A stretch of 64,000 nt of DNA, taken from contig JASHUY010000025.1 of assembly GCA_030039755.1 (NCBI GenBank), positions 5,158-69,157 on the forward strand, written 5' to 3'. Below the pieces are notes generated by a model. The model was not told the origin of the DNA. It did no database searches and saw only the letters and a list, made by a program, of their open reading frames with translations. Below, one piece after another: positions 5,891 through 34,848 of the stretch. Source of the stretch: Acidimicrobiales bacterium. GTDB taxonomy: Bacteria > Actinomycetota > Acidimicrobiia > Acidimicrobiales > RAAP-2. The translations under genes and the position numbers were made by a program. Within the stretch, counting starts at the first letter, position 1; every line of letters starts with the position of its first letter.

Positions 5891-6270
5891 ACGGCAGCGC
5901 CCACCTGGCCCCGGCATGTGCCCGCGCCGTAACTTGAGCAAACCACGGTGAGGATGAGGCGGCTCATCCCCTCTCCCAAGTTCCCGCTTGCGCGACGATG
6001 AAGACGATGCGCGCACGTAGGAGCCTCTGAGCACTCCGAGCTCTTCGCCCGCCGCTGTGCTGGCCTCGAGCCCTCGCGGCCGTGCTCTCCCGGCTCGATG
6101 CTGCCGGTGTGCCGACCTCAGATGAAGCTTCCAGAGGCAGCCAGCAGCCATGCTCCGGGGGGTCGACCGCTGCGGTTTTCGCTGGAATCGAGGTTCCCCG
6201 ACGCGGCAGGGACCGGTGGTGGCATAGTGCGGACGGCGGCAGCAGTGATCTCGCGGGGAGGATCGGTGGA

Positions 6271-10311: not shown

Positions 10312-10948
10312 GGAACACCCACAACTGGCTGAGGGCGGAGCCTCCCACGAAGAGTGCGGGGCCGAGGCTCCGGGCCGGATTCACCGACGTCCCGTCGATC
10401 GGGATGCCGACGAGGTGGACGAGCGTCAAGCTGAGCCCGATCGCGATGCCCGCCACCGTCGCATTGCTGGCTCGACGCGTGACCGCGAGGATCACGAAGA
10501 CGAAGACGAAGGTGAGGATGATCTCGGCGACGAAGGCTCCGGCGGCATTGGCGCCGATGATGGACGACTTCCCGTAGCCGTCCGCGCCGAGCCCGACAGC
10601 GGAGCGGTACAGCGGCGACGAGTGGACGACTCCGTAGAGCCCGGCGGCACCCACGATCCCACCGACGATCTGCGCCGCCCAGTAGCCGACCGCGTCGGCG
10701 AGCGAAATGCGCCTGGCCGCCAGGAAGCCCATCGTGACGGCCGGGTTCACGTGGCATCCCGAGATGGGTCCGATCCCATAGACGAGTGCGAGCAGCACCA
10801 GCCCGAACACCAAGGCGGTCAGGACGTCTCCGGCCGCGATGCTGGTGCCGGTGACCTTGAACCCGAAGCACAGCGTTGCTGCCCCCGCACCGAAGAAGAC
10901 CAGCAGGGCCGTGCCGAGCGCCTCTGCGATGAGCGACCGTGGCTTCAT
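10199..10948 (-). CDS. MIP-family channel (aquaporin Z / GlpF-like)
   Basis: ATG 10948 (AAGGGGG upstream) lies within ORF 10199..11068. There are two NPA boxes (SGCHVNPAVT and GTSVNPARS) and six hydrophobic segments. Confidence 0.9.
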   Translation of the reverse strand: MKPRSLIAEALGTALLVFFGAGAATLCFGFKVTGTSIAAGDVLTALVFGLVLLALVYGIGPISGCHVNPAVTMGFLAARRISLADAVGYWAAQIVGGIVGAAGLYGVVHSSPLYRSAVGLGADGYGKSSIIGANAAGAFVAEIILTFVFVFVILAVTRRASNATVAGIAIGLSLTLVHLVGIPIDGTSVNPARSLGPALFVGGSALSQLWVFLIAPLVGGVLSALAYHFFYPKGEEEPEVEPAAEERAA

Positions 10949-11346
10949 CTCCGAACCCCCTTTCGTGTGGACGACCGTGAGGCCTCCGGTGCACATGATC
11001 CCAAACTCCGGTAGGGAACTGTGGGTTCCCGAACGCCGGCCGCCACCTGCCGGGTGACGTTCTGCCACGAGCTCTCGCCAGGCAGGGAGCAGACCCGAAC
11101 CGCGCCTTCGGGTCGCGGCGCTCAGGCCCAGACATGTCTCGACGAGGTGCTCGACATGACGCGGGACGCATGCCGGTACCCTGAGTGACCGGGAGGGGTC
11201 GTCCCCGGGCGGGCCGGCGAGCCGTCTGAGCTCCAGTGCCGGGAGACAGAGGCGACGGCCACGAGGACGGGTGGAGATGGGCGAGACGGGATGGGGAGGC
11301 GAGATGGGCGAGGCTCGACGAGGTCCGTGGCCCGGCGGCGCGCGGG

Positions 11347-12843
11347 ATGATGTGGACGATGGTTGATCTCACGGACGGCAACGCTGCCGACGCGTCGGCG
11401 AGCTCGCTGAGGGCGCCCGTCGCCCCCCACGTGATCGTCGTCTTCGGTGCCACCGGGGACCTGGCCCACCGCAAGCTGCTCCCCGGAATTCTGCACCTGT
11501 CGGAAGCGGGGCTGCTCCCCGATTTCCGCCTGGTGGGAGTCGCGATGGAGGAGATGGGCGACGAGGAGTTCCGTTCGATGGCACGCCGGGCGTGCGAACA
11601 GTTCGCCAGGACCAACCTCACCGACGACACCTGGAACGAGTTTGCGGAACGGCTCTCGTACGTGCCCACCTCGGCGGGTCCGGCGGCGCTGCACGAGCAC
11701 GTTCTTCGAAACGAAAAGGAGCTCGGTGGAGGAGCGAGGTACCTCCATTACCTGTCGATCCCACCGACGGCGGCCGGCTCCGTCGTCCGGATGCTGGCCG
11801 AGGCGGACCTCGTCGATCAGGCGCGGATCATCATGGAGAAGCCCTTCGGCAGCGATCTGGAGAGCGCACGGGCGCTGAACGCGGTCGTGCACGAGGTCTT
11901 CCGCGAGGACCAGGTATTCCGGATCGACCACTTCCTCGGCAAGGAGGCCGCGCAGAACATCCTCGCTTTCCGCTTCGCGAATGGGCTGTTCGAGCCCATC
12001 TGGAACCGCGATCACATCGACCACGTCCAGATCGACGTGCCCGAGACGCTCTCGGTCGACGGAAGAGCCAGCTTCTACGAGGAGACCGGTGCCTACCGGG
12101 ACATGGTGGTCACGCACCTCTTCCAGATCCTGGCCTTCATCGCCATGGAGCCCCCGACCGCCCTGGAGCCGAAGGCGATCAGCGAGGAGAAGAACAAGGT
12201 CTTCCGTTCGATGCGCCCCGTCGACCCGGCGCACGTCGTGCGCGGTCAGTACGAGGGTTACCGCCACACGCCAGGGGTGGACCCCCACTCGGAGACCGAG
12301 ACCTTCGTGGCGTTGCGGGTGGAAATCGACAACTGGCGCTGGGCAGGAGTGCCGTTCTTCCTGCGCACCGGAAAGCAGATGGCCGAAGGCGCGCGGATCG
12401 TGTCGATCGCGTTCCGGGAGCCTCCGAAGAGCATGTTCCCGTCGGACTCGGGCGTGGGGGCCCAAGGACCCGACCACCTCACGTTCGACCTGGCGGACTC
12501 GTCGAAGCTGTCGCTTTCGTTCTACGGGAAGCGGCCCGGTCCCGGCATGAAGCTCGACAAGCTGAGCCTGCAATTCGCGCTCCACGAGACCGGGCGCGAG
12601 GCCGATGTGCTCGAGGCCTACGAGCGGCTCACGCACGACGCCATGGTGGGGGACAGGACGCTCTTCAACACCGCCGAGGGCATCGAGCGGCTCTGGGAGA
12701 TCTCGAAGCCGCTCTTGGACGACCCACCTCAGGTCCTCCCGTACTGGTCGGGCAGTTGGGGACCGGCGACGATCGACGAGCTGATCGCCCCGAGATCGTG
12801 GCGCCTCCCGTTCCAGCGGGGCTGGCGGACGACGGCATCCTGA
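11347..12843 (+). CDS. zwf: glucose-6-phosphate 1-dehydrogenase
   Basis: VIVVFGATGDLAHRKLLPG is the NADP-binding motif and RIDHFLGKE is the active-site motif. The start was placed at ATG 11347; ATG 11359 is also possible. No opcA-like gene follows. Confidence 0.9.
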   Translation: MMWTMVDLTDGNAADASASSLRAPVAPHVIVVFGATGDLAHRKLLPGILHLSEAGLLPDFRLVGVAMEEMGDEEFRSMARRACEQFARTNLTDDTWNEFAERLSYVPTSAGPAALHEHVLRNEKELGGGARYLHYLSIPPTAAGSVVRMLAEADLVDQARIIMEKPFGSDLESARALNAVVHEVFREDQVFRIDHFLGKEAAQNILAFRFANGLFEPIWNRDHIDHVQIDVPETLSVDGRASFYEETGAYRDMVVTHLFQILAFIAMEPPTALEPKAISEEKNKVFRSMRPVDPAHVVRGQYEGYRHTPGVDPHSETETFVALRVEIDNWRWAGVPFFLRTGKQMAEGARIVSIAFREPPKSMFPSDSGVGAQGPDHLTFDLADSSKLSLSFYGKRPGPGMKLDKLSLQFALHETGREADVLEAYERLTHDAMVGDRTLFNTAEGIERLWEISKPLLDDPPQVLPYWSGSWGPATIDELIAPRSWRLPFQRGWRTTAS

Positions 12844-16722: not shown

Positions 16723-18441
16723 GTGCCGGCCCACGACGTGACGAACCAACCTCCCGTCCTCGCCGACTACGACGTCGCGCAGGATGCGACGCTCCTCGCC
16801 GGTTTGCACGCGTTCGGCGCCGGGTGGGCGGAGCCCGAGCTCCACGAGGTGGGGCGCCTCGCCGGGACGGCGCACGTCGCGGAGATGGCCAGGGTGGTGA
16901 ACGAGTACCCGCCCGTGTTGCGGACGTACGACCGCTCCGGCGACCGGATCGACGAGGTCGAGTTCCACCCCTACTGGCACGATCTCCTCCGACTCGCACT
17001 TTCCCAGGGCCTGCACGCCACCGCCTGGCGGACACCGCGGCGAAGTGCGCACACGGCGCGCACCGCGAAGTTCCTGGTCTGGGGGCAGACCGAGGCCGGT
17101 CACCTGTGCCCGGTGTCGATGACGTACGCCGTGGTTCCCGCACTGCGCCATGCGCCGTCGCTCGCCTCGCGCTTCGAGCCGCTGCTCGAGTCCCCGGACT
17201 ACGACCCCGGGCTGCGGGACCCCGAGACCAAGCTCGGCCTCCTCGCGGGCATGTCCGTGACGGAGAAGCAGGGTGGCTCCGACCTGCGATCCAACACGAC
17301 GACCGCGACCCCGACCGGCGACGGAACCTTTCGCATCCTGGGGCACAAGTGGTTCACCTCGGCCCCGATGTCGGACCTGTTCCTCGTCCTCGCACAGGCG
17401 CCGGAAGGGCTCTCGTGCTTCCACGTTCCCCGGGTCCTCCCGGGGGGCGAGCGCAACGCCATCCGGCTGCAACGGTTGAAGGACAAGCTCGGAAACCGTT
17501 CCAACGCCTCTGCCGAGGTCGGGTACGAGGGAGCAGTCGGCTGGCTCGTCGGAGAGGAGGGCCACGGCATCCGGACGATCATGGAGATGGTGTCCGCGAC
17601 CAGGCTCGACGCGATGACCGCGAGCGCGGCCGGCATGCGGTGGGCCGCGGTCCAGGCGGTCCACCACGCTCGCCACCGCCGGGCGTTCGGCGCCCTCCTC
17701 GTCGACCAGCCACTGATGGCCAACGTCCTCGCCGACCTGGTCGTCGAGTCGGAGGCCGCGACGCTGCTGTCGCTGCGGCTCGCGGCCGCGACGGACCACG
17801 CGGCGGCGGGCGACGACGCGGAGGCCGCCTTCCGCCGGATCGCTCTCCCCGTCGGCAAGTACTGGGTCTGCAAGCGCGCGCCCGCCCACGCGGCCGAGGC
17901 GCTCGAATGCCTCGGGGGCAACGGGTACGTCGAGGAGTCCCAGATGCCCCGCCTTTACCGCGAAGCGCCTCTCAACTCGATCTGGGAGGGCTCCGGGAAC
18001 GTCACCGCGCTCGACGTGCTCCGGGCGATGGCGACCCGGGCCGGGACCGTCGACGCCTTCATCGACGAAGTGGTGAGGGTGGAGGGCGAGGACGCGCGGC
18101 TCGATCGCGCCGTCGAGGAGCTCCGCAAGGAGCTCGTGGACGGCGAAGCCCTCGAGGCGCGCGCCCGGCGGATCACCGAGCGGTTGGCGCTGGTCCTCCA
18201 GGCGTCGCTCCTGCTGCGGCACGGCGCGCCGGCGGTCGCCGACGCCTTCATGTCGTCCCGGCTCGAGCGCGACCACGGCGGAGCCTTCGGCGACCTCTCG
18301 CCACGCGCCGACCTTCGCGCGATCCTGGAGCGGGCGGCAGTGGAGGTGCTCGGCCCGGCTCAGGGCTCGCCGGCTCCGGGCCCCGGTGGCACCCGGTCGG
18401 CCGTCCCGAGCCGCGGTGCCGTGCCGGCGGCGAAAGGCTAG
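16723..18441 (+). CDS. AidB-like acyl-CoA dehydrogenase family protein
   Basis: AGGAGG precedes GTG 16723. The N-terminus NQPPVLADYDV..DATLL, together with WFTSAPMSD and IWEGSGNV, is typical of AidB-type acyl-CoA dehydrogenases. Confidence 0.8.
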   Translation: MPAHDVTNQPPVLADYDVAQDATLLAGLHAFGAGWAEPELHEVGRLAGTAHVAEMARVVNEYPPVLRTYDRSGDRIDEVEFHPYWHDLLRLALSQGLHATAWRTPRRSAHTARTAKFLVWGQTEAGHLCPVSMTYAVVPALRHAPSLASRFEPLLESPDYDPGLRDPETKLGLLAGMSVTEKQGGSDLRSNTTTATPTGDGTFRILGHKWFTSAPMSDLFLVLAQAPEGLSCFHVPRVLPGGERNAIRLQRLKDKLGNRSNASAEVGYEGAVGWLVGEEGHGIRTIMEMVSATRLDAMTASAAGMRWAAVQAVHHARHRRAFGALLVDQPLMANVLADLVVESEAATLLSLRLAAATDHAAAGDDAEAAFRRIALPVGKYWVCKRAPAHAAEALECLGGNGYVEESQMPRLYREAPLNSIWEGSGNVTALDVLRAMATRAGTVDAFIDEVVRVEGEDARLDRAVEELRKELVDGEALEARARRITERLALVLQASLLLRHGAPAVADAFMSSRLERDHGGAFGDLSPRADLRAILERAAVEVLGPAQGSPAPGPGGTRSAVPSRGAVPAAKG

Positions 18442-18563
18442 GAGCGAGGCGAGGGAGGCCGGCGGCGATGGGGACAGCGCGCGCCCTCGGACGGCGCGAG
18501 GAGCAGGTCGACGCGGGCTCCGAGCCGCACTCGCCGGCACGGCGCTTCGCGGTTCCTCCCGCG

Positions 18564-20588
18564 ATGTCGCGGGTCGGGACAGGAGAGGCGGAGCCGGCCG
18601 CGCGCAAACCGCCTGGCGTCCCGCGCCGCGCGGTGATCGAGGAGATCAAGCCGACGGTCGACGGCGGTCGGTTTCCGGCCAAGGCCGCGGTCGGCGACAC
18701 GGTCGGAGTCGAGGTGACCGCCTTCGGGGACGGCCACGACCTCCTGGCGTGCGACCTGCGTGTCCAGCGCGAGGGCGACTCGTCGTGGACGACGATCGAG
18801 ATGGGGCCCGTCGGCAACGACCGCTGGAGGGCGACGTTCCCGGCCGAAGCCGTCGGCCGCTACCGCTTCTGCGTCCGCGCCGGCGTCGACCGGTACGCGA
18901 CGTGGTTGCGCGACCTGTACGCGCGTGCGGACGCCGGCCAGGACGTGCAGACCGAGCTCCTGGTCGGAGCCGACCTGCTGGGGAAGGCGGCCTCGCGGGC
19001 GAGCGGGGCGGACAAGAAGCAGCTCGCGGCCGCGGCGGACCGCGTCGCCACCGCCGCCGACGGCCTGCACGACGGGACCCTCGGCGGGACCCTCGGCGGG
19101 ATGCTGCGCAGCGACGTCCTCACCGAGCTCGTCCGCCGCTACCGCCCGACGTCGGACGCGACGACCTCGGCGACCTACACGGTGGTCGTGGACCCCGCCC
19201 TCGCGCGCTTTTCGACGTGGTACGAGCTGTTCCCCCGGGGCGCGTCGCACGACGCGGGCCGCCCGGGCACCCTTGCCGACGTGCAGGCGCGCCTCGACTA
19301 CGTCTCGTGGCTGGGCGCCGACGTGCTGTACCTCCCGCCGATCCATCCGATCGGCACGACGGCCCGCAAGGGCCCGGACGGCAGCGCCGAGGCCGGCCCG
19401 GCCGACCCGGGGAGCCCGTGGGCGATCGGGTCGGAGGACGGGGGTCATTGCGCGATCGACCCCGGGCTCGGCACGTTCGCGGACTTCGAGAGGCTGGTCA
19501 CCGCGGCCGCGGAACGGGGGATCGCCGTCGCGTTGGACCTCGCGTTCCAGTGCTCACCCGACCACCCCTGGGTGCGCGAGCACCCGGAGTGGTTCCGGCA
19601 CCGGCCGGACGGGTCGATCCGGTACGCGGAGAACCCGCCGAAGCGCTACGAGGACATCTACCCCCTCGATTTCGAGACCGACGACTGGTGGGGTCTGTGG
19701 CTCGCGCTGCTCGACGTCGTGCGTTTCTGGATCGACCACGGCGTGCGTGTCTTTCGCGTCGACAACCCCCACACGAAGCCCTTCGCCTTCTGGGAGTGGC
19801 TCATCGCCACGGTGAAGGAGGACCATCCCAAGACGATCTTCCTCTCCGAGGCGTTCACCCGGCCCGCCGTGATGTACCGGCTGGGGAAACTCGGGTTCAG
19901 CCAGTCGTACACCTACTTCGCGTGGCGCAACAAGAAGTGGGAGATCGAGTCCTACATGCGGGACCTCGCGCTCGTCGCGGACTTCTTCCGCCCGAACTTC
20001 TGGCCCAACACGCCCGACATCCTCACCGAAGAGCTCCAGACCGGGGGGGCCGCGGCGTTCGTGGCCCGTCTGGTGCTCGCGGCGACGCTGTCATCGAGTT
20101 ACGGGGTGTACGGCCCCCCGTTCGAGCTGCAGGAGCACGTCCCGCGTGCTCCCGGGTCCGAGGAGTACGCCGGCTCGGAGAAGTACGCCGTCCGTCATTG
20201 GGATCTCGACAGGGCCGGAAGCCTCGCACCGCTCATGGCGCGCGTGAACGCGGTGCGACGTGCGCACCCCGCGCTCCAGCGCGACGACACGTTGCGGTTC
20301 CACACGACCGACAACGACCAGCTCATCGCGTACTCGAAGACCTCGGACGACGACGCGGTGCTCGTGGTGGTGAACCTCGACCCCACCTACCGCCAGTCCG
20401 GCTGGGTGCATCTGGGCGAGTTTGCCGGCGGTCCCGGCAAGTCGATCGAGGTGCACGACCTCCTCACCGACTCGCACTACCGGTGGCAGGGGTCTCAGGG
20501 CTTCGTCATCCTCGACCCCGCGACCCAGCCCGCGCACGTGCTCGCGCTCACCTGGCGGGGTAACCGCCCCGCGCCCGGTTCGCCATGA
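18564..20588 (+). CDS. glgE: alpha-1,4-glucan:maltose-1-phosphate maltosyltransferase
   Basis: This is the 3' part of giant ORF 16824..20588. Family motifs are IEEIKPTVDGGRFPAKAAVGD, FSTWYELFPRG, LGADVLYLPPIHPIG, FRVDNPHTKPF and IFLSEAFTRP. ATG 18564 gives 674 aa; ATG 18468, which has GGGAGG upstream, is an alternative start. Confidence 0.9.
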   Translation: MSRVGTGEAEPAARKPPGVPRRAVIEEIKPTVDGGRFPAKAAVGDTVGVEVTAFGDGHDLLACDLRVQREGDSSWTTIEMGPVGNDRWRATFPAEAVGRYRFCVRAGVDRYATWLRDLYARADAGQDVQTELLVGADLLGKAASRASGADKKQLAAAADRVATAADGLHDGTLGGTLGGMLRSDVLTELVRRYRPTSDATTSATYTVVVDPALARFSTWYELFPRGASHDAGRPGTLADVQARLDYVSWLGADVLYLPPIHPIGTTARKGPDGSAEAGPADPGSPWAIGSEDGGHCAIDPGLGTFADFERLVTAAAERGIAVALDLAFQCSPDHPWVREHPEWFRHRPDGSIRYAENPPKRYEDIYPLDFETDDWWGLWLALLDVVRFWIDHGVRVFRVDNPHTKPFAFWEWLIATVKEDHPKTIFLSEAFTRPAVMYRLGKLGFSQSYTYFAWRNKKWEIESYMRDLALVADFFRPNFWPNTPDILTEELQTGGAAAFVARLVLAATLSSSYGVYGPPFELQEHVPRAPGSEEYAGSEKYAVRHWDLDRAGSLAPLMARVNAVRRAHPALQRDDTLRFHTTDNDQLIAYSKTSDDDAVLVVVNLDPTYRQSGWVHLGEFAGGPGKSIEVHDLLTDSHYRWQGSQGFVILDPATQPAHVLALTWRGNRPAPGSP

Positions 20589-25857: not shown

Positions 25858-27758
25858 TCACCGCGGACGACCTGTTCCTCTTCAACGAGGGATCGCACCG
25901 CCGTCTCGCGCAGAAGCTTGGCGCGCACGTCCTCGACGGCGTCGTCCGCTTCGCGGTGTGGGCGCCGAGCGCACGAGGCGTGTCCGTCGTGGGCGACTGG
26001 AACTGGTGGCAGCGCGACGCGGACCCGCTCTCGCCGAACGCGAGCTCGGGCATCTGGGAAGGCGTCGCAGGAGACGCCCGCAGAGGCCAGGTCTACAAGT
26101 TCGCGATCACCACGCAGCAGGGCACGGTCCTCGAGAAGGCGGACCCGTTCGCCTTCTTCTGCGAGGCGCCACCGAGGACCGGCTCGGTCATCTGGGACCT
26201 CGCCTACGAATGGGGCGACGAGGCCTGGATGGCGACGCGCGGCGAGCGTCAGTCCCTGCGCTCGCCGATCTCGATCTACGAGGTCCACATCGGGAGCTGG
26301 CTTCGCACACCGGATCGGCCGCACGAGCTCCTCGGCTACGCCGCGCTCGCTCCACGCATCGTCGACCACGTGCGGCGCAACGGGTTCACCCACGTCGAGC
26401 TGCTCCCCGTCATGGAGCACCCTTTCTACGGGAGCTGGGGCTACCAGACCACCGGCTACTTCGCGCCGAGCGCGCGCTACGGCGAGCCGCAGGACTTCAT
26501 GGCGATGGTCGACGCACTGCACCAGGCCGGCATCGGCGTGATCCTCGACTGGGTTCCCTCCCACTTCCCGAACGACGCGTTCGCGCTCGCGACGTTCGAC
26601 GGCACGCACCTCTACGAGCACGCCGACCCGCACCGCGGCGTGCACCCCGACTGGAACAGCCTCGTCTTCAACTACGGGCGGCACGAGGTGCGGAGCTTCC
26701 TCGCCTCGTCGGCCGACCACTGGCTGCGCACCTATCACGCCGACGGGCTGCGGGTCGACGCGGTGGCCTCCATGCTGTACCTCGACTACTCGCGCAAGGC
26801 CGGCGAGTGGGAGCCGAACGTCTACGGCGGGCACGAGGACCTGGACGCGACCGCGTTCCTGCGCCAGCTGAACACCGGTGTCTATGCCGACCACCCGGAC
26901 GTGCAGACCGTCGCCGAGGAGTCGACCGCGTGGGCCGGCGTCTCCCGGCCAGTCGAGTGGGGCGGGCTCGGGTTCGGGTTCAAGTGGGACATGGGCTGGA
27001 TGCACGACACGCTGCGCTACATGGGCGACGACCCGGTGCACCGCAGATGGCATCACGGAGAGCTGACGTTCCGGGCGGTCTACGCGTTCACCGAGAACTT
27101 CGTCCTGCCCCTTTCCCACGACGAGGTCGTGCACGGCAAGGGCTCGCTTCTGTCGAAGATGCCCGGCGACGACTGGCAGCGACGAGCCAACCTGCGGCTG
27201 CTGTACGGCTACCAGTACGGGCTCCCCGGCAAGAAGCTCCTCTTCATGGGCTCCGAGCTCGCCGACTGGCGTGAGTGGACACACGACGCAGGGCTGCACT
27301 GGGAGCTGCTGGACGACGAGCGGCACGCAGGCGTCTGCCGGTGGCTGCGGGACCTGAACGGGCTCTATCGCAGCGAGCGCGCGCTGCACGAGCTGGACGC
27401 CGACCCAGCGGGCTTCGAGTGGGTGCAGCACGACGACGCCGACATCAGCGTGCTCAGCTTCCTGCGCAAGTCCTCCGACGGGCGGGTCGTGCTCGTCGTC
27501 TGTAATTTCACGCCGGTGCCCCGCGACGATCTCCAGACCGGCGTGCCCGTGGACGGCTTCTGGCGGGAGGTCTTGAACTCCGACGCGCTCGAGTACGGCG
27601 GGAGCGGCGTCGGCAACATGGGCGGCGTCCTCGCACGACCGGTGCCCACGCACGGGCGCCCGCGCACCTTGACGCTCGTCGCCCCGCCGCTCGGCTGCGT
27701 CTTCCTCTCGCCCGAGCCCCGGTCGCCCGGGCCCGACGGGGACGACGGCGTCGGCTGA
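25854..27758 (+). CDS. glgB: 1,4-alpha-glucan branching enzyme (short N-terminus form)
   Basis: GTG 25854 follows AGGAGG and overlaps the malQ stop as GTGA. Motifs are IYEVHIGSW, HVELLPVMEHPFYGSWGYQ, GVILDWVPSHF, GLRVDAVASMLY and LSHDEVVHGK. Confidence 0.9.
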   Translation: MITADDLFLFNEGSHRRLAQKLGAHVLDGVVRFAVWAPSARGVSVVGDWNWWQRDADPLSPNASSGIWEGVAGDARRGQVYKFAITTQQGTVLEKADPFAFFCEAPPRTGSVIWDLAYEWGDEAWMATRGERQSLRSPISIYEVHIGSWLRTPDRPHELLGYAALAPRIVDHVRRNGFTHVELLPVMEHPFYGSWGYQTTGYFAPSARYGEPQDFMAMVDALHQAGIGVILDWVPSHFPNDAFALATFDGTHLYEHADPHRGVHPDWNSLVFNYGRHEVRSFLASSADHWLRTYHADGLRVDAVASMLYLDYSRKAGEWEPNVYGGHEDLDATAFLRQLNTGVYADHPDVQTVAEESTAWAGVSRPVEWGGLGFGFKWDMGWMHDTLRYMGDDPVHRRWHHGELTFRAVYAFTENFVLPLSHDEVVHGKGSLLSKMPGDDWQRRANLRLLYGYQYGLPGKKLLFMGSELADWREWTHDAGLHWELLDDERHAGVCRWLRDLNGLYRSERALHELDADPAGFEWVQHDDADISVLSFLRKSSDGRVVLVVCNFTPVPRDDLQTGVPVDGFWREVLNSDALEYGGSGVGNMGGVLARPVPTHGRPRTLTLVAPPLGCVFLSPEPRSPGPDGDDGVG

Positions 27759-29869
27759 TGCGCGTCTGGCCGGGGAACCCGCACCCGCTCGGGGCGACGT
27801 GGGACGGCGAAGGGGTGAACTTCGCCCTGTATTCCGAGCACGCGACCGCGGTGGAGCTGTGCATCTTCTCCGACCCCACCTCCGCGGAGCCCGACCAGCG
27901 TGTGGCGATGCCGGCGACCACCGACCGGGTGTGGCACGCGTACCTTCCCGACGTCCGTCCCGGCGCGCTCTACGGCTACCGCGTCGACGGGCCGTACGCG
28001 CCCGAGGAGGGCCATCGCTTCAACCGCCACAAGCTGCTGATCGACCCGTACGCCCGTGCGCTCAGCGGCATGGTTCGCTGGAGCGACGACCTCTACGGCT
28101 ACCACGTCGGCGACCCCTCCGAGGACCTCTCCTTCGACCGGCGCGACTCCGCGGGGTCGATGCCCAAGTGCGTCGTGGTGGACCCCGCGTTCACCTGGGG
28201 AGACGACCGCTCACCGTCGACGCCCTGGAACCGCACCGTGATCTACGAGTGCCACGTGCGCGGCATGACCGTGCGCCACCCCGGCGTGCCCGAGCACCTC
28301 CGCGGGACCTACCTCGGCCTGTCGTCGGACCCGATCGTCGACCACCTCGTCGATCTCGGGGTGACCGCCGTCGAGCTCATGCCCGTCCACCATCACGTGA
28401 ACGACCGTCGACTGGTCGAGATGGGGCTGACGAACTACTGGGGTTACAACACGATCGCCTACTTCGCGCCGCACGTCGAGTACGCCACCGGCGGTCTGGG
28501 CCAGCAGGTGACCGAGTTCAAGTCGATGGTGCGCACGCTGCACCGCGCCGGGCTCGAGGTCATCCTCGACGTCGTCTACAACCACACGGGTGAGGGCAAC
28601 CGCAATGGCCCGACCCTCTCGTTGCGCGGGATCGACAACGCGGTGTACTACCGCCTCCGCCCCGACGCGCCGCGCTACCTCGTCGACTACACGGGCACCG
28701 GCAACAGCCTGAACATCCTCCATCCCCGCACGATGGCGCTGGTGATGGACAGCCTGCGTTATTGGGTGACCGACATGCACGTCGACGGGTTCCGCTTCGA
28801 CCTCGCGCCGGTGCTCGTGCGGGGGTACGAAGCCGGCCAGCCGAGCGCCTTCTTCGAGATCATCCACCAGGACCCGGTCCTCTCGACCGTGAAGCTCATC
28901 GCCGAGCCCTGGGACGTGGGCCCGGACGGCTACCGCCTCGGCCGCTTCCCGCAGGGATGGTCCGAGTGGAACGGCGCCTTCCGCGACTGCGTCCGGCGTT
29001 TCTGGCGCGGGGACGCCGGACAGGTGCCCGAGCTCGCCTCACGGCTCACGGGCTCGAGCGACGTCTACGGCCACACCGGGCGGCGCACCTACGCCAGCGT
29101 GAACTTCGTGACCTGCCACGACGGTTTCACGCTGACCGACCTCGTGAGCTACGACCAGCGGCACAACGAGGCGAACGGTGAGCACGGCGAAGACGGCACC
29201 TGCGAGAACTACAGCAGGAACTGGGGCGTGGAGGGACACAGCGATTCGGTACGCGTCGAGCGCCTGCGCGACCGCATGAAGCGCAACTTCCTGACGACGC
29301 TCCTGTGCTCCCAGGGCGTGCGCATGCTGCTGGGCGGCGACGAGATCGGCCGGACGCAGGACGGGAACAACAACGCGTACTGCCAGGACAACGAGATCGG
29401 CTGGGTCGACTGGAACCTCGGGGAGACCGGCGTGGAGCTGCTGGACTTCGTCCGCCAGCTGGTGGGCATCGTGTCGGAGAACCCCATCCTGCGCCGCAGG
29501 AACTTCCTGACCGGAGAGGTCGTGGCGGGCACCCAGATGAAGGACGTGACCTGGATCCGGCCCGACGGCGAGGAGATGAAGGCGGACGACTGGGCGGAAC
29601 CGGACAACCGCACGCTCGGCATGCTGCTCTACGGGCGTGCGGTGGACGAGGTCGACGCACGCGGCCGCTCCGCACGTGGCGAGACCTTGCTGCTCCTCTT
29701 GAACGCGGGATCGCGACCGCGTCCCTACACGCTTCCGAAGGTGGCCGAGCCGGGACGCTGGGAGGAGCTCGTGAACACCGCGCGCCCGACGCGCTTCGCG
29801 AGGGAGGTGCGCGGTCCCACGGTCAATCTCCCGGCACAGTCCAGCCTGCTGCTGCGCCGGGCGGAATGA
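27758..29869 (+). CDS. glgX: glycogen debranching enzyme
   Basis: The start overlaps the glgB stop by 1 nt. Motifs are MRVWPGNPHPLGATWDGEGVNFALYS, YWGYNTIAYFAP, VILDVVYNHT, GFRFDLA, IAEPWD and VTCHDGFTL. Confidence 0.9.
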   Translation: MRVWPGNPHPLGATWDGEGVNFALYSEHATAVELCIFSDPTSAEPDQRVAMPATTDRVWHAYLPDVRPGALYGYRVDGPYAPEEGHRFNRHKLLIDPYARALSGMVRWSDDLYGYHVGDPSEDLSFDRRDSAGSMPKCVVVDPAFTWGDDRSPSTPWNRTVIYECHVRGMTVRHPGVPEHLRGTYLGLSSDPIVDHLVDLGVTAVELMPVHHHVNDRRLVEMGLTNYWGYNTIAYFAPHVEYATGGLGQQVTEFKSMVRTLHRAGLEVILDVVYNHTGEGNRNGPTLSLRGIDNAVYYRLRPDAPRYLVDYTGTGNSLNILHPRTMALVMDSLRYWVTDMHVDGFRFDLAPVLVRGYEAGQPSAFFEIIHQDPVLSTVKLIAEPWDVGPDGYRLGRFPQGWSEWNGAFRDCVRRFWRGDAGQVPELASRLTGSSDVYGHTGRRTYASVNFVTCHDGFTLTDLVSYDQRHNEANGEHGEDGTCENYSRNWGVEGHSDSVRVERLRDRMKRNFLTTLLCSQGVRMLLGGDEIGRTQDGNNNAYCQDNEIGWVDWNLGETGVELLDFVRQLVGIVSENPILRRRNFLTGEVVAGTQMKDVTWIRPDGEEMKADDWAEPDNRTLGMLLYGRAVDEVDARGRSARGETLLLLLNAGSRPRPYTLPKVAEPGRWEELVNTARPTRFAREVRGPTVNLPAQSSLLLRRAE

Positions 29870-29888
29870 CCGCCGCAGCGCCGGTGCG

Positions 29889-30572
29889 TCAGCCTGCCGC
29901 GGACCCGGCCGTCACGTTCGCCGCAACCCCTTGGTGGACGGGCGTCCCGGGGAGCGAGGAACGGGCCGGCGCCGGCTCCAGCTCCAGCTGCGGGGGGTCG
30001 GGCAGGGCTACCTCCGTGGGTGCCGGGCGGGCTGTCGTGGCGAGCACCGCCTGGGTGTCCTCGCGGCTCGTCCCGGAAGCCTGCACGGCGTCCCACAGCT
30101 CCTCCCGGTAGACGCGGCGGTTGGGCGCGTCGACCCCGAGCCGGACGTAGCTGCCGGCGGGGCGGATGAGCGTGATGCTGAACTCTTCGCCGATCACACC
30201 GCCGCCGAAGGTGATGGTGGGGTTCCCTTTCGAGATGGAGGAAACGGCCACCCACAACTCGTCGCCGACGTCGACGCGCTGGCCGGGCTGGCGGTCGACC
30301 GCGAGCCCCGCGTGCAGCGTCTCCGCCGCGTCGCCCTCGGCCCCGGTGGAGATCCGCACCTGCTCCCCGTCGAAGACGACGCTCGACATCGGCACGATCT
30401 CGAGGCGTGCCTCGCTCGGGGAGAGAACCATCGCCGAGACGCGCAGCTCCCGGAAGGCGCTCGCGGAAGAGATGCCGACCCAGACGCGGCGGTCGGTCAC
30501 CGAGAGGACGGTCACGCGGAGGTCCGGCTCGATGACGATCGACTCGCCTGGCCGACGATTGAGTACGAGCAT
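29889..30572 (-). CDS. multi-repeat CsrA/RsmA-like protein (227 aa)
   Basis: ATG 30572 has GGAGCGGAGGGG upstream and lies in the 3' part of ORF 29889..31664. The N-terminus MLVLNRRPGESIVIEPDLRVTVLSV resembles CsrA ([25 protein letters not shown]). Residues 131-163, FSITLIRPAGSYVRLGVDAPNRRVYREELWDAV, resemble the CsrA core VRIGVNAPKEVSVHREEIY. Two degenerate copies lie in between. Third codon positions are GC-rich. Confidence 0.6.
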   Translation of the reverse strand: MLVLNRRPGESIVIEPDLRVTVLSVTDRRVWVGISSASAFRELRVSAMVLSPSEARLEIVPMSSVVFDGEQVRISTGAEGDAAETLHAGLAVDRQPGQRVDVGDELWVAVSSISKGNPTITFGGGVIGEEFSITLIRPAGSYVRLGVDAPNRRVYREELWDAVQASGTSREDTQAVLATTARPAPTEVALPDPPQLELEPAPARSSLPGTPVHQGVAANVTAGSAAG

Positions 30573-30646
30573 CTGGGCCCCTCCGCTCCGGGCCACAACC
30601 GTAGTTGGCATCCGGGAGGGATGCGTGATTGTGCCGGCCGGGGAGG

Positions 30647-31564
30647 CTACCGCCCGGGTGCGAACGCCTCGAGGACGGTACGGGCGTGCCGCAGCGAGGC
30701 TTCCGGGTCGGCGTCGGGGGCGCCGACGAGCGGATCGAAGTTCAAGTCGACGAAGGCCTCGGTCATCCCGGAGTCCGCGAGCGCGTCCAGGTCCTCGCGG
30801 ATCTCCTCGAGCGTCCCGGTGAAGGGCGCGCGTGTCGTCGGGCGGACCTTGACCGCTGCCCGGCAGACGAATCGCAGGGAGAACGGGTCCCGCCCCGCTT
30901 CGGCAGCGGCGCCGCGGACGACGGCGATCGAGTCGGCCAACCCTGCGAACTCCGCACGGCTGCTGCTGATCCAGCCGTCCGCCATCCGGCCTGCCCTGCG
31001 CAACGAGGCCTCGGCGGCACCACCGAACAAGATCGGCGGGTGAGGGTGCTGGAGGGGCTTCGGGAGCACCCTGGCGCGCGGGACGCGGAAGTACGGGCCG
31101 TGGTACTCGACGACGTCGTCGGTCCAGATCGCGCGCAGGCAGCGGACGAAGTCCTGGGTGCGGCCGCCGCGGTGCTCGTAGGAGACACCGGTCGCCTCGA
31201 ACTCCTCGCGCATCCAGCCGAGACCGATCCCGAGATCGAGACGGCCTCCGGAGAGGATGTCGATCGTGGCGAGCTGCTTCGCGAGGACGATCGGGGAGTA
31301 GAAGGGCGCGTTCAGGACCGCGACCCCGAGCCGCACCCTCGACGTCTTGGCGGCGAGGTAGGCGAGCACGGCGAGCGGGTCCTGGACGCTCCGGTACGGC
31401 GGGTCGAGGAGGTCGCGGCCGCCTGTCCCGTCGACCGGGGCGAGGAGCCGTTGGAACGTCCAGAGGGAGCCGTAGCCGAGCTCCTCGGCCCACCCTGCGA
31501 CCTGGGCGCACCCTTCCGCCGTCGCCCAGGACCCCGAGACCGGCACCGCCGCGCCGAGCTCCAT
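30647..31564 (-). CDS. LLM-class (luciferase-like) F420-dependent oxidoreductase
   Basis: ATG 31564 follows AGGAGG. The sequence MELGAAVPVSG...LGYGSLWTFQRLL...RVRLGVAVLNAPFYSPIVLAKQLATIDILSGGRLDLGIGLGW is typical of LLM-family proteins. Confidence 0.8.
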   Translation of the reverse strand: MELGAAVPVSGSWATAEGCAQVAGWAEELGYGSLWTFQRLLAPVDGTGGRDLLDPPYRSVQDPLAVLAYLAAKTSRVRLGVAVLNAPFYSPIVLAKQLATIDILSGGRLDLGIGLGWMREEFEATGVSYEHRGGRTQDFVRCLRAIWTDDVVEYHGPYFRVPRARVLPKPLQHPHPPILFGGAAEASLRRAGRMADGWISSSRAEFAGLADSIAVVRGAAAEAGRDPFSLRFVCRAAVKVRPTTRAPFTGTLEEIREDLDALADSGMTEAFVDLNFDPLVGAPDADPEASLRHARTVLEAFAPGR

Positions 31565-31575
31565 GCCGCACCTCC

Positions 31576-31617
31576 TTTCGTCTCGTCGTTCTTTCGTCTC
31601 GTCGTTCCCCGTCGTTC
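31576..31617. repeat. 16-nt tandem repeat (tttcgtctcgtcgttc x2 plus a partial copy) in the 5' leader of the LLM gene
   Basis: Read directly from the sequence. Copies lie at 31576-31591 and 31592-31607, with a partial copy at 31608-31617. Confidence 0.8.
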
Positions 31618-31643
31618 GCGCGCTCGCCCGATCGACCGCCGGC

Positions 31644-31694
31644 GCGCTCAGAATGCCGGCGCACTCAGAATGCCGGCGCACTCAGAATGGCAGC
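31644..31694. repeat. 17-nt tandem repeat x3 that includes the stop codon of the SDR gene
   Basis: The copies are gcgctcagaatgccggc, gcactcagaatgccggc and gcactcagaatggcagc. The third copy holds the real stop (tca 31682-31684 on the plus strand). Confidence 0.85.
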
Positions 31695-32440
31695 CGCCGC
31701 CAGACCGGTTGGGGGATGAGGTGCGCCACGGCGAGCGCCCACCTGGCGATCGGGGGCACCCAGACCACGGTTGCACCTGACGCGAGCCCCGCCACTACCG
31801 CGTCGGCGACCGACCCGGGGGTCGTCGACATCGGCACGAGGGGCAGCCCTTCGGTCATCTTGGTGGCGACGCGGCCGAGCCGGACGACGTGGACGACGAC
31901 ACCGGTCCCGCGGAGCGCCTCTGCGAGCCCGATCGAGAACGCGTCGAGGCCCGATTTGGCGGAGCCGTAGACGAAGTTCGTCCTCCGCACCCGCAGCGCG
32001 GCGAGGGACGACAGCACGACGATCCGCCCGCCGCCCTGCTCGCGCATCCGGGCGGCCGCCCGGGTGAGCGCCACCGCCGGCCACGAGTACGTCGCGGCCA
32101 CCACCTCGGCGGTGCGTGCAGGATCGAGCTCGTCGCGCTGGTGCGAGAGCACGCCGACCGCGAGCAGGACGAGGTCGACGGCGCCGGCGGCGGCGAAGCA
32201 CTCGTCCACGACGCCTGCGGCACCGGCGACGTCCCGCGCGTCGAAGTGCACGGTCGTGACGTGTGCGACGCCGGCGTCGGAGGCCGCCCGCGACGCCAGT
32301 GCGAGCCGTTCCTCGTCCCTTCCCGCAAGGACGACGGCGCGCAGTCGGCGCCGCGCCAGCGCGCGGACGACGGCGCCGGCGAGATCAGAGGTCCCCCCGA
32401 GCACGACGGCGGACTCGGGCCGTCCGGAAGCGTCGAGCAC
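31682..32440 (-). CDS. DprE2-like short-chain dehydrogenase/reductase
   Basis: GTG 32440 has GGAGG 7 nt upstream. VLDASGRPESAVVLGGTSDLAG, RRTNFVYGSAKSGLDAFSIGLAEALRGTGVVVHVVRLGRVATKM and the C-terminus IPQPVWRRLPF closely parallel mycobacterial DprE2 (Rv3791) as recalled from memory. The length (252 aa) also fits. Confidence 0.75.
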   Translation of the reverse strand: MLDASGRPESAVVLGGTSDLAGAVVRALARRRLRAVVLAGRDEERLALASRAASDAGVAHVTTVHFDARDVAGAAGVVDECFAAAGAVDLVLLAVGVLSHQRDELDPARTAEVVAATYSWPAVALTRAAARMREQGGGRIVVLSSLAALRVRRTNFVYGSAKSGLDAFSIGLAEALRGTGVVVHVVRLGRVATKMTEGLPLVPMSTTPGSVADAVVAGLASGATVVWVPPIARWALAVAHLIPQPVWRRLPF

Positions 32441-32547
32441 GTGGCGACCTCCTCCCTCCTCACCTTGCGGCGGTCCTCGGTCGCGCCCAGTCTGCCCGGG
32501 AGCCGGAGCTCCGTGCCCCGGCGCAGGAGTGGGCGAACGGGTCGGGC

Positions 32548-32790
32548 TCAGCCTTCCCCGGCCGGCGGCTGGCGCTTCACCCGCACCCGTCCCCGCCAGG
32601 CGCTCCCGAGCAACGCCACGATGGCCAGCAGCGGGAGCACGACGATCGCCGCGACGCGGTCGTGTCGGAGCGCGAACGCGACACCGACGAGAACCAGCAT
32701 CGCGACGAACAGCTCGGGCGTGTCGCCGACGAGGAAGTCCCACCAGAAGTGCCCGAACGCCCTGGTCCAGCGCGCCACCGTCCGGGTCAC
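32548..32790 (-). CDS. small membrane protein (80 aa)
   Basis: Its start overlaps the stop of the upstream gene by 4 nt. It has two hydrophobic helices (ELFVAMLVLVGVAFAL and IVVLPLLAIVALLG). Confidence 0.5.
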   Translation of the reverse strand: MTRTVARWTRAFGHFWWDFLVGDTPELFVAMLVLVGVAFALRHDRVAAIVVLPLLAIVALLGSAWRGRVRVKRQPPAGEG

Positions 32791-33566
32791 GAGGCGACCC
32801 TCCCTTCGGCGTCGGCGTGCTCGAGGTGCGCGGGAGCGGAGCCCGGCGCCTGGGTCTTCAAGAGCGCGACGGCGACGGCCGTCACCGCGGCGAACACCCC
32901 GATCAGCACGGGGATGGCGAGGTCGCTGCCCGGCCAGTGGACGCCTGCGCCCTCACCCACCCAGAACAGCCCGAAGCTGGTCAGCATGATGCCCACGACG
33001 GTCTTGATCGTGTTCTCGGGGACTCCGGAAAGCTGGCGGGAGACGAGCAGGCCGGCGACCGACACGACCACGATCGCCGCGGCGGCCGCGGCCGACGCGT
33101 AGCCCAGCTTGTGCTGGCTGGCGCCGAGGCTGATCACGATCAGCACGACCTCCATGCCCTCGAGGAACACTCCCTTGAAGGCCACGACGAAGCCGAGGCT
33201 GTCACGACGGCTCCGCGTGCCGCCGCCGAGCGAGGCCGAGGTCTCCGCGTAGATGGCGTCTTCGTCGTGCTTGGCCTTGTGGCCGCTCGCACGCAGGATC
33301 GCCTTGCGCAGCCACGAGAGGCCGAGCACGAGCAGCAGCGCGCCGACGAGCACGCGCAGCGCGTCGATCGGGACGTAGTGGATGAGGGGGACGCCCACGG
33401 CCCCGACGAGCACGCCGAGGACGACCAGCGCCGCCACCGTCCCTTCCATCGCCGACCGCCAGCCGCGCGTGACGCCCGAGGCGAGCACGATGGTGAGCGC
33501 TTCGACGGCCTCGACGCAGCACGCGCCGAAGACCGCGAGAATCAGGATGATCGTGGCGCTGCTCAC
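32787..33566 (-). CDS. polytopic membrane protein (COG4280 / GDT1-like)
   Basis: GTG 33566 is the only in-frame start before the hydrophobic core. The sequence VSSATIILILAVFGACCVEAVEALTIVLA...FKGVFLEGMEVVLIVISLG shows a duplicated E-x-x-E/hydrophobic motif. The upstream part of ORF 32787..33824 is Arg-rich shadow. Confidence 0.55.
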   Translation of the reverse strand: MSSATIILILAVFGACCVEAVEALTIVLASGVTRGWRSAMEGTVAALVVLGVLVGAVGVPLIHYVPIDALRVLVGALLLVLGLSWLRKAILRASGHKAKHDEDAIYAETSASLGGGTRSRRDSLGFVVAFKGVFLEGMEVVLIVISLGASQHKLGYASAAAAAAIVVVSVAGLLVSRQLSGVPENTIKTVVGIMLTSFGLFWVGEGAGVHWPGSDLAIPVLIGVFAAVTAVAVALLKTQAPGSAPAHLEHADAEGRVAS

Positions 33567-33609
33567 CGCGTCACCGCCGGCGAGGGCCCGTGCGCGCGTC
33601 GTGGTGACC

Positions 33610-34848
33610 TCATTGGATGCGTTCGGTTCCTCTCGTCGCTGACGCTGCGCCGTTCGCTTGGGGCGCGCCGCCCGCGGGGGCACCCCCGCGCCGACCCGGC
33701 TCCGCGTCCTCGGGCGCCGCCCCGGGAGGCCCGGGCTCGGGCTCGGCGAAGAGGATACAGCCCGCCGCGTCGAGCTCGATGCCGACCGGCGTCCCCCTCG
33801 GGACCCTCCGCTCGCTGAGAACACCGGTGAGCCGCCGCCCGCCCGCGAGGTCTACGACGAGCTCGTAATGCCGGCCGCGGAACGCGGTGTCCGTCACGCT
33901 CCCGACCAGGTTGGCCGCCTCGGACTCCGCGGCGCACAGCCGCACCGCCGTCGGGCGGATTGCGAGGAGCAACGGACCGTCGGGCGCGGCTCCGGCTCCG
34001 GCACCCGTGCCCTCACCGACGCGCGCCTCGATCGGCCGGGCCCCGTCGATGCCCACGGGCTGCACCGAGACGTGGCCGGTGATCTTGCCTTCACCCACGA
34101 CCGTGACCTCGAGCTCGCCTGCAAGGCCCGTGAACCTGGCGACGAAGAGGGTGGCGGGCGTCGCGTAGATGTCCTCGGGCGTCCCGAGCTGGACGAGCAC
34201 GCCGTCCTGGAGGACCCCGACCTGGTCCGCCAGCGCGAAGGCCTCGAGCTGGTCGTGGGTGATGTAGATGGTGGTGGCGCCGGCTTCACGCACGAGTGAG
34301 GAGATCTCCACCCGCATGCGCTCGCGAAGGTCGGCGTCGAGGTTCGAGAGCGGCTCGTCGCACAAGAGGAGGCCGGTGTCCCCGACGAGCGCGCGCGCCA
34401 GGGCGACGCGTTGCTGCTCGCCGCCGGACAGCTGGACGGGGAAACGGTCGGCGAGGTGCGAGAGGCCGACCCGGTCGAGCATGCCCATGGCGTGGCGTCG
34501 CGCGTCGTGACGCCCGACCCGGTGCCGCTTGAGCGCGAACGCGACGTTGTCCTGCGCGCTCAGATGCGGCCAGAGCGCGTAGTCCTGGAAGACCATTGCG
34601 AGGTCCCGCCGCTCCGGAGGGAGGTGCACGCGCCCGTCTGCGACGACGACGTCGCCGATCACCAACCGGCCGGAGGTCAGCCGTTCGATGCCCGCGATCG
34701 TCCGGAGCAGCGTGGTCTTGCCCGACCCGGACGGGCCGAGCAGGACCATGAACGTCCCCGGGTCGACAGTGAAGGTCGGGCCCCGCAGGGCGTGGTTGCC
34801 GCCGGGGTAGACCTTCGAGACGTGCTCGACGACCAGGCGCTCAGCCAC
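33610..34848 (-). CDS. ABC transporter ATP-binding protein (FbpC/PotA-type importer ATPase)
   Basis: Carries Walker A (GPSGSGKTTLLR), the ABC signature (LSGGEQQRVALARAL) and Walker B (LLLCDEPLSNLD), plus a C-terminal regulatory or TOBE-like extension. Confidence 0.9.
   Translation of the reverse strand: MAERLVVEHVSKVYPGGNHALRGPTFTVDPGTFMVLLGPSGSGKTTLLRTIAGIERLTSGRLVIGDVVVADGRVHLPPERRDLAMVFQDYALWPHLSAQDNVAFALKRHRVGRHDARRHAMGMLDRVGLSHLADRFPVQLSGGEQQRVALARALVGDTGLLLCDEPLSNLDADLRERMRVEISSLVREAGATTIYITHDQLEAFALADQVGVLQDGVLVQLGTPEDIYATPATLFVARFTGLAGELEVTVVGEGKITGHVSVQPVGIDGARPIEARVGEGTGAGAGAAPDGPLLLAIRPTAVRLCAAESEAANLVGSVTDTAFRGRHYELVVDLAGGRRLTGVLSERRVPRGTPVGIELDAAGCILFAEPEPGPPGAAPEDAEPGRRGGAPAGGAPQANGAASATRGTERIQ

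Follow-up and report, generated by a model that had tools for sequence, protein, structure and literature searches.

A putative single-chain, two-unit CsrA-like protein of Acidimicrobiales and its flagellar relatives

A csrA-like gene lies on the minus strand, at 29889..30572, of the window analysed here, i.e. the whole 64,000-nucleotide (nt) stretch of contig JASHUY010000025.1 (assembly GCA_030039755.1, an Acidimicrobiales bacterium), to which all coordinates refer unless another locus is named. We find that (i) its product is probably a single-chain, pseudo-dimeric CsrA, a post-transcriptional regulator that would use one canonical face to bind GGA-containing RNA; (ii) its architecture, as read from profile alignments, is a tandem duplication of an ∼85-amino-acid (aa) unit, each copy being a CsrA domain with a second beta2–beta4-like hairpin; and (iii) in Acidimicrobiales the flagellar CsrA has this long single-chain form, from which the window gene derives as a paralogue.

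CsrA similarity, tandem units and RNA faces

The gene is a complete open reading frame (ORF) of 227 aa plus a stop, running from the ATG at 30572 to the stop codon at 29889, and a Shine-Dalgarno sequence (GGAGGGG; 30578..30584, minus strand) stands 5 nt before the ATG. Translation of this minus-strand ORF (30572 to 29889) reproduces the 227-aa protein described in the first-pass annotation, whose quoted residue ranges are right within a few residues. The 91 homologues span 147–247 aa, and their first ∼165 residues align without large gaps; core identity is 33–100% among homologues, with 21 invariant columns in a 32-sequence alignment. Conservation of the ORF as coding in relatives, a check set beforehand, is therefore borne out by 91 sequences with a conserved core. 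An exhaustive HMMER search also retrieves more remote long members, with 27–35% identity to the window protein. In all, some 115 homologues of comparable length are known from these searches. All homologues with a source name are labelled ‘carbon storage regulator’, and all come from Acidimicrobiales or from unclassified Actinomycetota/Actinomycetes metagenome-assembled genomes (MAGs).

The similarity of the window protein to CsrA is far above chance. Against Pfam PF02599 the whole protein scores 73.1 bits (E = 1.7e-20; gathering score 27) over three stretches, in agreement with the earlier assignment to the CsrA family. When segments are scanned alone against the same profile, aa 1–46 score 42 bits (profile positions 1–36), aa 124–177 score 29 bits (profile positions 13–52), aa 83–130 score 12 bits only (E = 0.19) and aa 41–89 do not score. 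Solved CsrA chains in the PDB match the window protein at E = 2e-7 to 1e-3 (phmmer). The top PDB matches of phmmer, which are designed armadillo repeats, and a representative-library match to a 1825-aa LapA adhesin were rejected as repeat-summed artefacts, each single stretch being insignificant.

Alignment of family profiles by hhalign places aa 1–88 on aa 89–172 collinearly over 62 columns (probability 95.9%, E = 6e-9). The first-pass annotation had proposed a single-chain, internally repeated protein, which this alignment upholds, and had divided it into four modules, which holds in part. Three of the four hairpins (aa 9–38, 97–126 and 124–152) are each detectably CsrA beta2–beta4-like, but module 2 (aa 36–64), scanned alone, resembles neither CsrA nor any other module at a detectable level; the protein is better described as two ∼85-aa units. 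Unit A (aa 1–88; 30309..30572, minus strand) has a canonical beta1–beta4, and its second hairpin and beta5/helix equivalent are degenerate in the profile alignment. Positions 1–37 of a canonical CsrA profile, built from three textbook sequences and six short Gemmatimonadales CsrAs (loci L034–L039), align to aa 1–37 with 99% probability (E = 3.6e-18; hhalign). Unit B (aa 89–172; 30057..30308, minus strand) is a complete CsrA domain into which a 25-aa hairpin has been inserted: positions 1–60 of the same profile, its whole length, align to aa 89–172 (98%, E = 2.6e-13), interrupted once by 25 extra residues at aa 101–125. The inserted residues (30198..30272, minus strand) make up the extra beta2–beta4-like hairpin of unit B, with a conserved KGNP turn in which K115, G116, N117 and P118 are each at least 90% conserved, and this extra-hairpin module (B1) is itself similar to canonical CsrA (73% probability, E = 3e-5).

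Two further segments follow the units. A Pro/Ala-rich linker (aa 173–216; 29925..30056, minus strand) is variable in both length and sequence among homologues and predicted to be disordered. The chain then ends in a clade-specific peptide (the GVAANVTAGSAAG-COOH region, aa 217–227; 29892..29924, minus strand), recognized by motif comparison. A peptide of the form [DN][VL][TA]AGS..G (e.g. A[DN]VTAGSAAG-COOH) is the C-terminal end in most close homologues and is found in none of the flagellar members described below; its role might be that of a docking motif or of a degron.

Each RNA face of the CsrA dimer combines beta1 from one chain with beta5 from its partner. The corresponding elements of the window protein are conserved asymmetrically. 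Beta1 of unit A (MLVLNRRPGE; 30543..30572, minus strand) is proposed to form half of an RNA face through L2, L4, R6 and R7, and residues L2–R7 are identical in 89 of 90 sequences. The other proposed half-face is the AP-NRRVYREELW segment (aa 149–160; 30093..30128, minus strand), i.e. beta5 and the helix start of unit B, where V154, R156, E158 and L159 are the equivalents of the canonical RNA contacts V42, R44, E46 and I47. All 90 sequences carry R156, E158 and L159 as well as A149 and P150, and V154 is present in 89/90. Mean column conservation is 0.98 for beta1 of unit A and 0.88 for beta5 of unit B, compared with 0.61 for beta1 of unit B and 0.54 for the unit-A region equivalent to beta5. 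These values bear out the earlier observation that the best-conserved beta1 lies at the N-terminus and the best-conserved beta5 at the end of the core. In place of the essential R44, unit A has D68, a position that is Asp in 54/90 sequences and Glu in 21/90 (acidic in 75/90). Unit B retains its beta1 in part (L90 in 56/90, R94 in 80/90, R or K at position 95 in 59/90 and G97 in 89/90). Such asymmetric conservation fits a protein in which one canonical GGA face is kept and the other has been left to decay; it is the pattern that a covalent pseudo-oligomer with one intact GGA face, as suggested in the first-pass annotation, would produce.

AlphaFold2 was run as a monomer on a 90-sequence alignment, with the flagellar member P0081 as the second model. 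The predicted local distance difference test (pLDDT) score of the window protein is ∼97 over aa 1–165 and 53–63 in the tail. In unit A, strands are predicted at residues 2–6, 11–14, 18–26, 29–36, 40–51, 54–60, 64–68 and 71–75, with a helix at 82–86; in unit B, strands are predicted at 90–94, 99–102, 106–114, 117–123, 131–139, 142–148 and 154–156, with a helix at 157–177. The same strand pattern is predicted for P0081 (pLDDT ∼95).

A possible history of this architecture is that an ancestral CsrA domain gained a second beta2–beta4-like hairpin, and that the resulting ∼85-aa unit was then duplicated in tandem, one chain now supplying what two supply in the domain-swapped homodimer. The halves may have specialized after fusion: all canonical RNA-contact residues are kept in unit-A beta1 and in the beta5/helix region of unit B, two elements that would be neighbours in a CsrA dimer. 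The protein would then most likely bind GGA-containing RNA monovalently, close to ribosome-binding sites, as a translational regulator.

Flagellar relatives and gene neighbourhood

Neighbourhoods of the homologues were obtained from a scan of one genome per species, from ten homologues by exact sequence and from tblastn with reference neighbours. The flagellar-type members, 37–52% identical to the window protein, are sited in flagellar loci, and every member below 56% identity whose neighbourhood was examined lies in such a locus, most adjoining fliW. Several arrangements occur: flgN-flgK-flgL-fliW-csrA, a csrA-like gene convergent with fliW, or one beside flhA and sigma-factor genes. Among 17 distinct flagellar-type loci, 15 have fliW adjoining the gene or within a few kb. 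The remote long member P0103, from the group with 27–35% identity, also belongs to a flagellar locus of Acidimicrobiales. The view in the first-pass annotation that CsrA is uncommon in this lineage has to be abandoned: this long protein is what Acidimicrobiales have as their flagellar CsrA, and most copies adjoin fliW.

The window gene arose as a paralogue from within these flagellar forms. In a midpoint-rooted neighbour-joining tree, the window clade (core identity at least ∼0.5) is monophyletic and nested among them. Neither the window nor any other window-clade locus is a flagellar locus, and none has fliW beside the csrA-like gene. Both paralogues are found together in three MAGs, i.e. YF2.bin68 (loci L012 and L028), MAS3.bin110 (L009 and L031) and SKS5.bin46 (L010 and L032). 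Separately, FK3.bin59 has three copies of the flagellar type, each on its own contig (L025, L030 and L033), which may reflect a mixed bin or real multiplicity. In locus L003, conserved proteins of 581 and 682 aa without Pfam matches (6069–7814 and 9704–11752) flank the flagellar-type csrA-like gene together with two sigma-70-family genes; the same set occurs in L021 and L022.

The two groups also differ at the position that corresponds to a known FliW determinant. In Bacillus subtilis, N55 is required for FliW binding, and it is invariant where FliW is present (bioRxiv 10.1101/2020.07.02.184341). Of 30 flagellar-type sequences, 29 have the equivalent Asn, within an AAN.AAAG..DL helix, whereas all of the ∼60 window-type sequences lack it; the window protein has G167 at this position. 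Because the N55 equivalent and the helix motif are lost throughout the clade, the window gene would encode a FliW-independent regulator. The window clade appears to have lost the FliW-contact Asn with its helix motif and to have gained the conserved C-terminal peptide on a disordered linker. Control may then have passed to a different partner, for which the C-terminal peptide is the obvious candidate handle.

We then compared the genes around the window-type copies. Directly upstream of the csrA-like gene in the window lies a co-directional gene for an F420-dependent LLM-class oxidoreductase (30647..31561, minus strand; TIGR03619, 229.8 bits against a cut-off of 166.9), with a DprE2-like SDR gene (31682–32500, minus strand) further upstream; the first-pass annotation had correctly described both as co-directional. 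On the other side is glgX (27758..29869, plus strand), the last gene of a convergent glgE-treS/mak-malQ-glgB-glgX operon. The 19-nt gap reported earlier is exact, stop-to-stop on opposite strands, with the glgX stop at 29869 and the csrA-like stop codon at 29889. Across the clade the neighbour order is (UbiA-DprE1-DprE2 or others)-LLM-csrA, facing the glg operon. The LLM gene is directly upstream of the csrA-like gene in 16 of the 19 window-clade loci, and 14 clade loci, the window among them, show convergence with (glgX)-glgB-malQ-treS/mak-glgE at core identities as low as ∼58%. The more divergent loci L043 and L044 keep LLM-csrA and have the glg operon lacking or displaced; L040 has an inserted ABC transporter; and one clade locus, on a short contig, has neither an LLM nor a glg neighbour. 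It is thus the F420-dependent LLM gene, rather than the glg operon, that accompanies the clade most constantly.

The DprE2-like gene of the window belongs to a wider set in related loci (e.g. L001, 3840–6968), where it is preceded by UbiA-family and DprE1-like (FAD_binding_4) genes; the UbiA/DprE1/DprE2 set represents a decaprenyl-phospho-arabinose-type pathway in Acidimicrobiales beside the GlgE-pathway operon. At the other end of that operon, only 26 nt separate the glgE ATG at 18468 from the preceding stop codon, which belongs to a gene for an AidB-like acyl-CoA dehydrogenase (16723–18441). The same tight junction is seen in loci L009, L010 and L012, and the alpha-glucan operon may be co-transcribed with the AidB-like gene. 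In the flagellar-type locus L019, a glgX homologue (11598–12470; 76% identity to that of the window) is located ∼9 kb from the csrA-like gene, beyond mot and sigma-factor genes, and may be a remnant of the neighbourhood where the paralogue arose.

A short motif precedes the gene. In the window it reads GCCAACTACGGTTG (30596..30609, minus strand), includes a likely -10 region (TACGGT) and is conserved in every glg/LLM-clade locus, where GCCA[AG]CTACGGTTG sits 22–40 nt 5′ of the csrA-like ATG (e.g. L001, 7957–7970). Among the flagellar loci, only L018 (1161), L019 (1867) and L020 (9942) carry the CTACGGTTG motif, and it was found upstream of no other gene in the loci compared. It may be a dedicated promoter of the csrA-like gene with TACGGT as the -10 element, and its presence in both paralogues hints that they may answer to the same sigma factor. 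A terminator and promoter consensus scan of 29600–30800 found nothing at the convergent junction. We also considered an autoregulatory hairpin with the GGA of the ribosome-binding site in its loop. Many loci have leader stems of 3–5 bp, differing in sequence, around the Shine-Dalgarno sequence; the candidate was rejected, as shuffled flanks pair equally (summed stem length 66 against 62.9 ± 4.0 in flank shuffles, P ∼0.25).

Opposing evidence and alternative readings

Several observations weigh against the reading of the window protein as a single-chain CsrA with one RNA face. The cut-offs of the NCBIfam CsrA equivalogs are not reached (66.9 against 73 bits for NF002469 and 55.7 against 70.1 bits for TIGR00202). 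Each unit has 7–8 predicted strands against five in CsrA, so the sheet arrangement may differ, and the packing of beta1 of unit A beside beta5 of unit B, as in the CsrA dimer, is what homology would predict. Foldseek comparison of both AlphaFold2 models with single PDB chains gave no match at E ≤ 0.001; the best matches, avidin-like barrels with a template modelling (TM) score of ∼0.2, are meaningless. This null is expected because the CsrA fold is normally built from two chains, and it is not positive evidence. The beta1 remnants of unit B possibly form a second, non-canonical RNA or protein surface. No RNA target of the window protein and no informative GGA site was found nearby, and an Rfam scan of 27000–34000 (E ≤ 1) returned one spurious viral match and no Csr/Rsm sponge RNA. 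Finally, all the synteny is drawn from a single order-level lineage, and common descent may be enough to account for it.

Alternative explanations concern either how the protein binds or what it regulates. One site per chain does not by itself make a protein monovalent: further dimerization or oligomerization, e.g. via the degenerate face, would make RNA binding bivalent again. The canonical protein depends on bridging two GGA sites, unit B conserves part of its beta1 (R94 and G97) and the AlphaFold2 models are of the monomer only; nevertheless, a predicted TM (pTM) score of 0.73–0.80 for the monomer and a complete, confident core suggest a self-sufficient domain, and we consider oligomerization rather doubtful. 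A more drastic alternative is that RNA binding was lost and the protein now serves as a protein-binding adaptor, its conserved beta1 and beta5 residues being structural only. The conserved C-terminal peptide on its disordered linker does resemble a docking motif, and in CsrA the residues L2, L4, V42 and I47 belong to the protein core as well. However, the exposed RNA-contact residues R6, R7 and R156 (the R44 equivalent), together with E158, are invariant at 33–100% identity, and such a loss is highly improbable because invariant exposed arginines are hard to explain by folding alone.

As for what the protein regulates, the gene might be a redundant second flagellar CsrA that takes part in flagellin homeostasis, binding flagellin mRNA and being antagonized by FliW. 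Its descent from flagellar, FliW-linked forms, its identical RNA-contact residues and the upstream motif common with flagellar loci L018–L020 would all suit this role. It nevertheless appears quite unlikely: every clade member has lost the N55 equivalent and the AAN.AAAG..DL motif, the window-type gene is never in a flagellar locus, and the same MAGs keep a separate FliW-linked copy. Escherichia coli CsrA represses glg genes, and the window protein could be a dedicated regulator of the GlgE-pathway alpha-glucan operon that binds glg mRNAs or acts via the 19-nt convergent junction. The convergent placement in 14 clade loci, kept down to ∼58% core identity, and the glgX within 9 kb in flagellar locus L019 are consistent with such a role. 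By contrast, the glg operon is absent or displaced in L043, L044 and L045, L040 has the inserted ABC transporter, and the LLM gene accompanies the clade more constantly. Convergence does not by default imply co-regulation, all loci are from one lineage and no Csr-type RNA lies nearby. The first-pass annotation had hinted at control of glycogen or alpha-glucan metabolism and had suggested a search for GGA-in-loop motifs in a glgE leader (18440–18570). That leader does not exist as a free region, as the 26-nt gap before glgE leaves no room for GGA hairpins beyond the ribosome-binding site, which contains the sole GGA; what ties the gene to glucan control is synteny alone, and we regard a dedicated glucan regulator as unlikely.

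The reading of the window protein as a single-chain CsrA with one canonical RNA face can be extended to a wider scenario, which we offer tentatively as one possibility. Acidimicrobiales would have swapped the CsrA homodimer for a single-chain, monovalent CsrA with one RNA face and one FliW site. The window copy would have been neofunctionalized, FliW control being exchanged for a partner of the C-terminal peptide, and would tie mRNA translation to F420-dependent metabolism or to envelope/alpha-glucan carbohydrate metabolism.

Significance and comparison with known CsrA systems

A literature search found no description of a tandem, single-chain or Acidimicrobiia CsrA. The database label ‘carbon storage regulator’ and the existence of flagellated Acidimicrobiia are already known, and fusion as such is not unique. 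CsrA and FliW were among the search queries of a survey of actinobacterial flagella (PMC10746217), and a 2026 domain-wide functional survey of CsrA excluded proteins >100 aa (PMC13443453). The family described here is apparently a natural, conserved, monovalent CsrA together with a neofunctionalized paralogue, judging from residue conservation and gene context.

Bivalency, i.e. two identical faces that bind two GGA sites, is central to models of CsrA repression and of sequestration by sponge RNAs and FliW. A lineage-wide fusion with one face would amount to an evolutionary experiment on whether bivalency is needed and whether a 1:1 stoichiometry of FliW to CsrA dimer suffices. The paralogue without the FliW motif and with a new terminal peptide would show how a flagellar checkpoint protein is recruited to other duties. 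For structural biologists the family may offer a monomeric CsrA scaffold, and annotators should note that the label ‘carbon storage regulator’ on proteins of 170–250 aa hides a different architecture.

Compared with canonical CsrA/RsmA/RsmE (1Y00 and 2JPP), the window protein has the same or equivalent contacts, with L2/L4/R6/R7 in unit A and the counterparts of V42/R44/E46/I47 in unit B, and is likewise predicted to be all-beta with a C-terminal helix. CsrA subunits are described as homodimeric and 61–100 aa long (PMC13443453), whereas the window protein has 227 aa and a 165-aa core, with two CsrA-derived units in one chain. It also differs in having an extra hairpin per unit, one canonical RNA face and a long disordered tail with a terminal motif.

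The FliW-partnered CsrA of Bacillus, Geobacillus and Campylobacter (5DMB) is a close parallel to the deep branches of the family, which share the flgK-flgL-fliW-csrA arrangement. The AAN.AAAG helix of the flagellar Acidimicrobiales forms, with N55, resembles the EENNRAAA of B. subtilis. By contrast, the window clade has neither N55 nor a neighbouring fliW and lies outside flagellar loci. The flagellar Acidimicrobiales forms themselves differ from these CsrAs in being single-chain, which would give one C-terminal FliW site per molecule instead of two.

Single-site CsrA heterodimers were reportedly engineered by Mercante et al. in 2009 and used to show dual-site bridging. They likewise combine one functional and one disabled RNA surface per dimer-equivalent, but the arrangement in Acidimicrobiales occurs naturally, within one covalently fused chain, and is kept throughout a bacterial order. 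RsmN/RsmF of Pseudomonas aeruginosa is a CsrA-family protein with rearranged and inserted elements that still binds GGA RNA (PMC13443453); it is a small homodimer with an inserted helix, whereas the window protein is a tandem fusion with an inserted hairpin.

Tandem CsrAs also occur in metagenomes, where P0130, P0140 and P0110 (132–161 aa) each consist of two canonical CsrA domains, both complete, with a linker between them. P0130 and P0140 are single-member clusters on 2–4 kb contigs and could be independent fusions or assembly artefacts. Like the window protein, P0130 (150 aa) and P0140 (161 aa) have two CsrA Pfam stretches per chain. However, their two domains are complete and canonical, and they have neither the extra hairpins nor the asymmetric decay that mark the Acidimicrobiales family.

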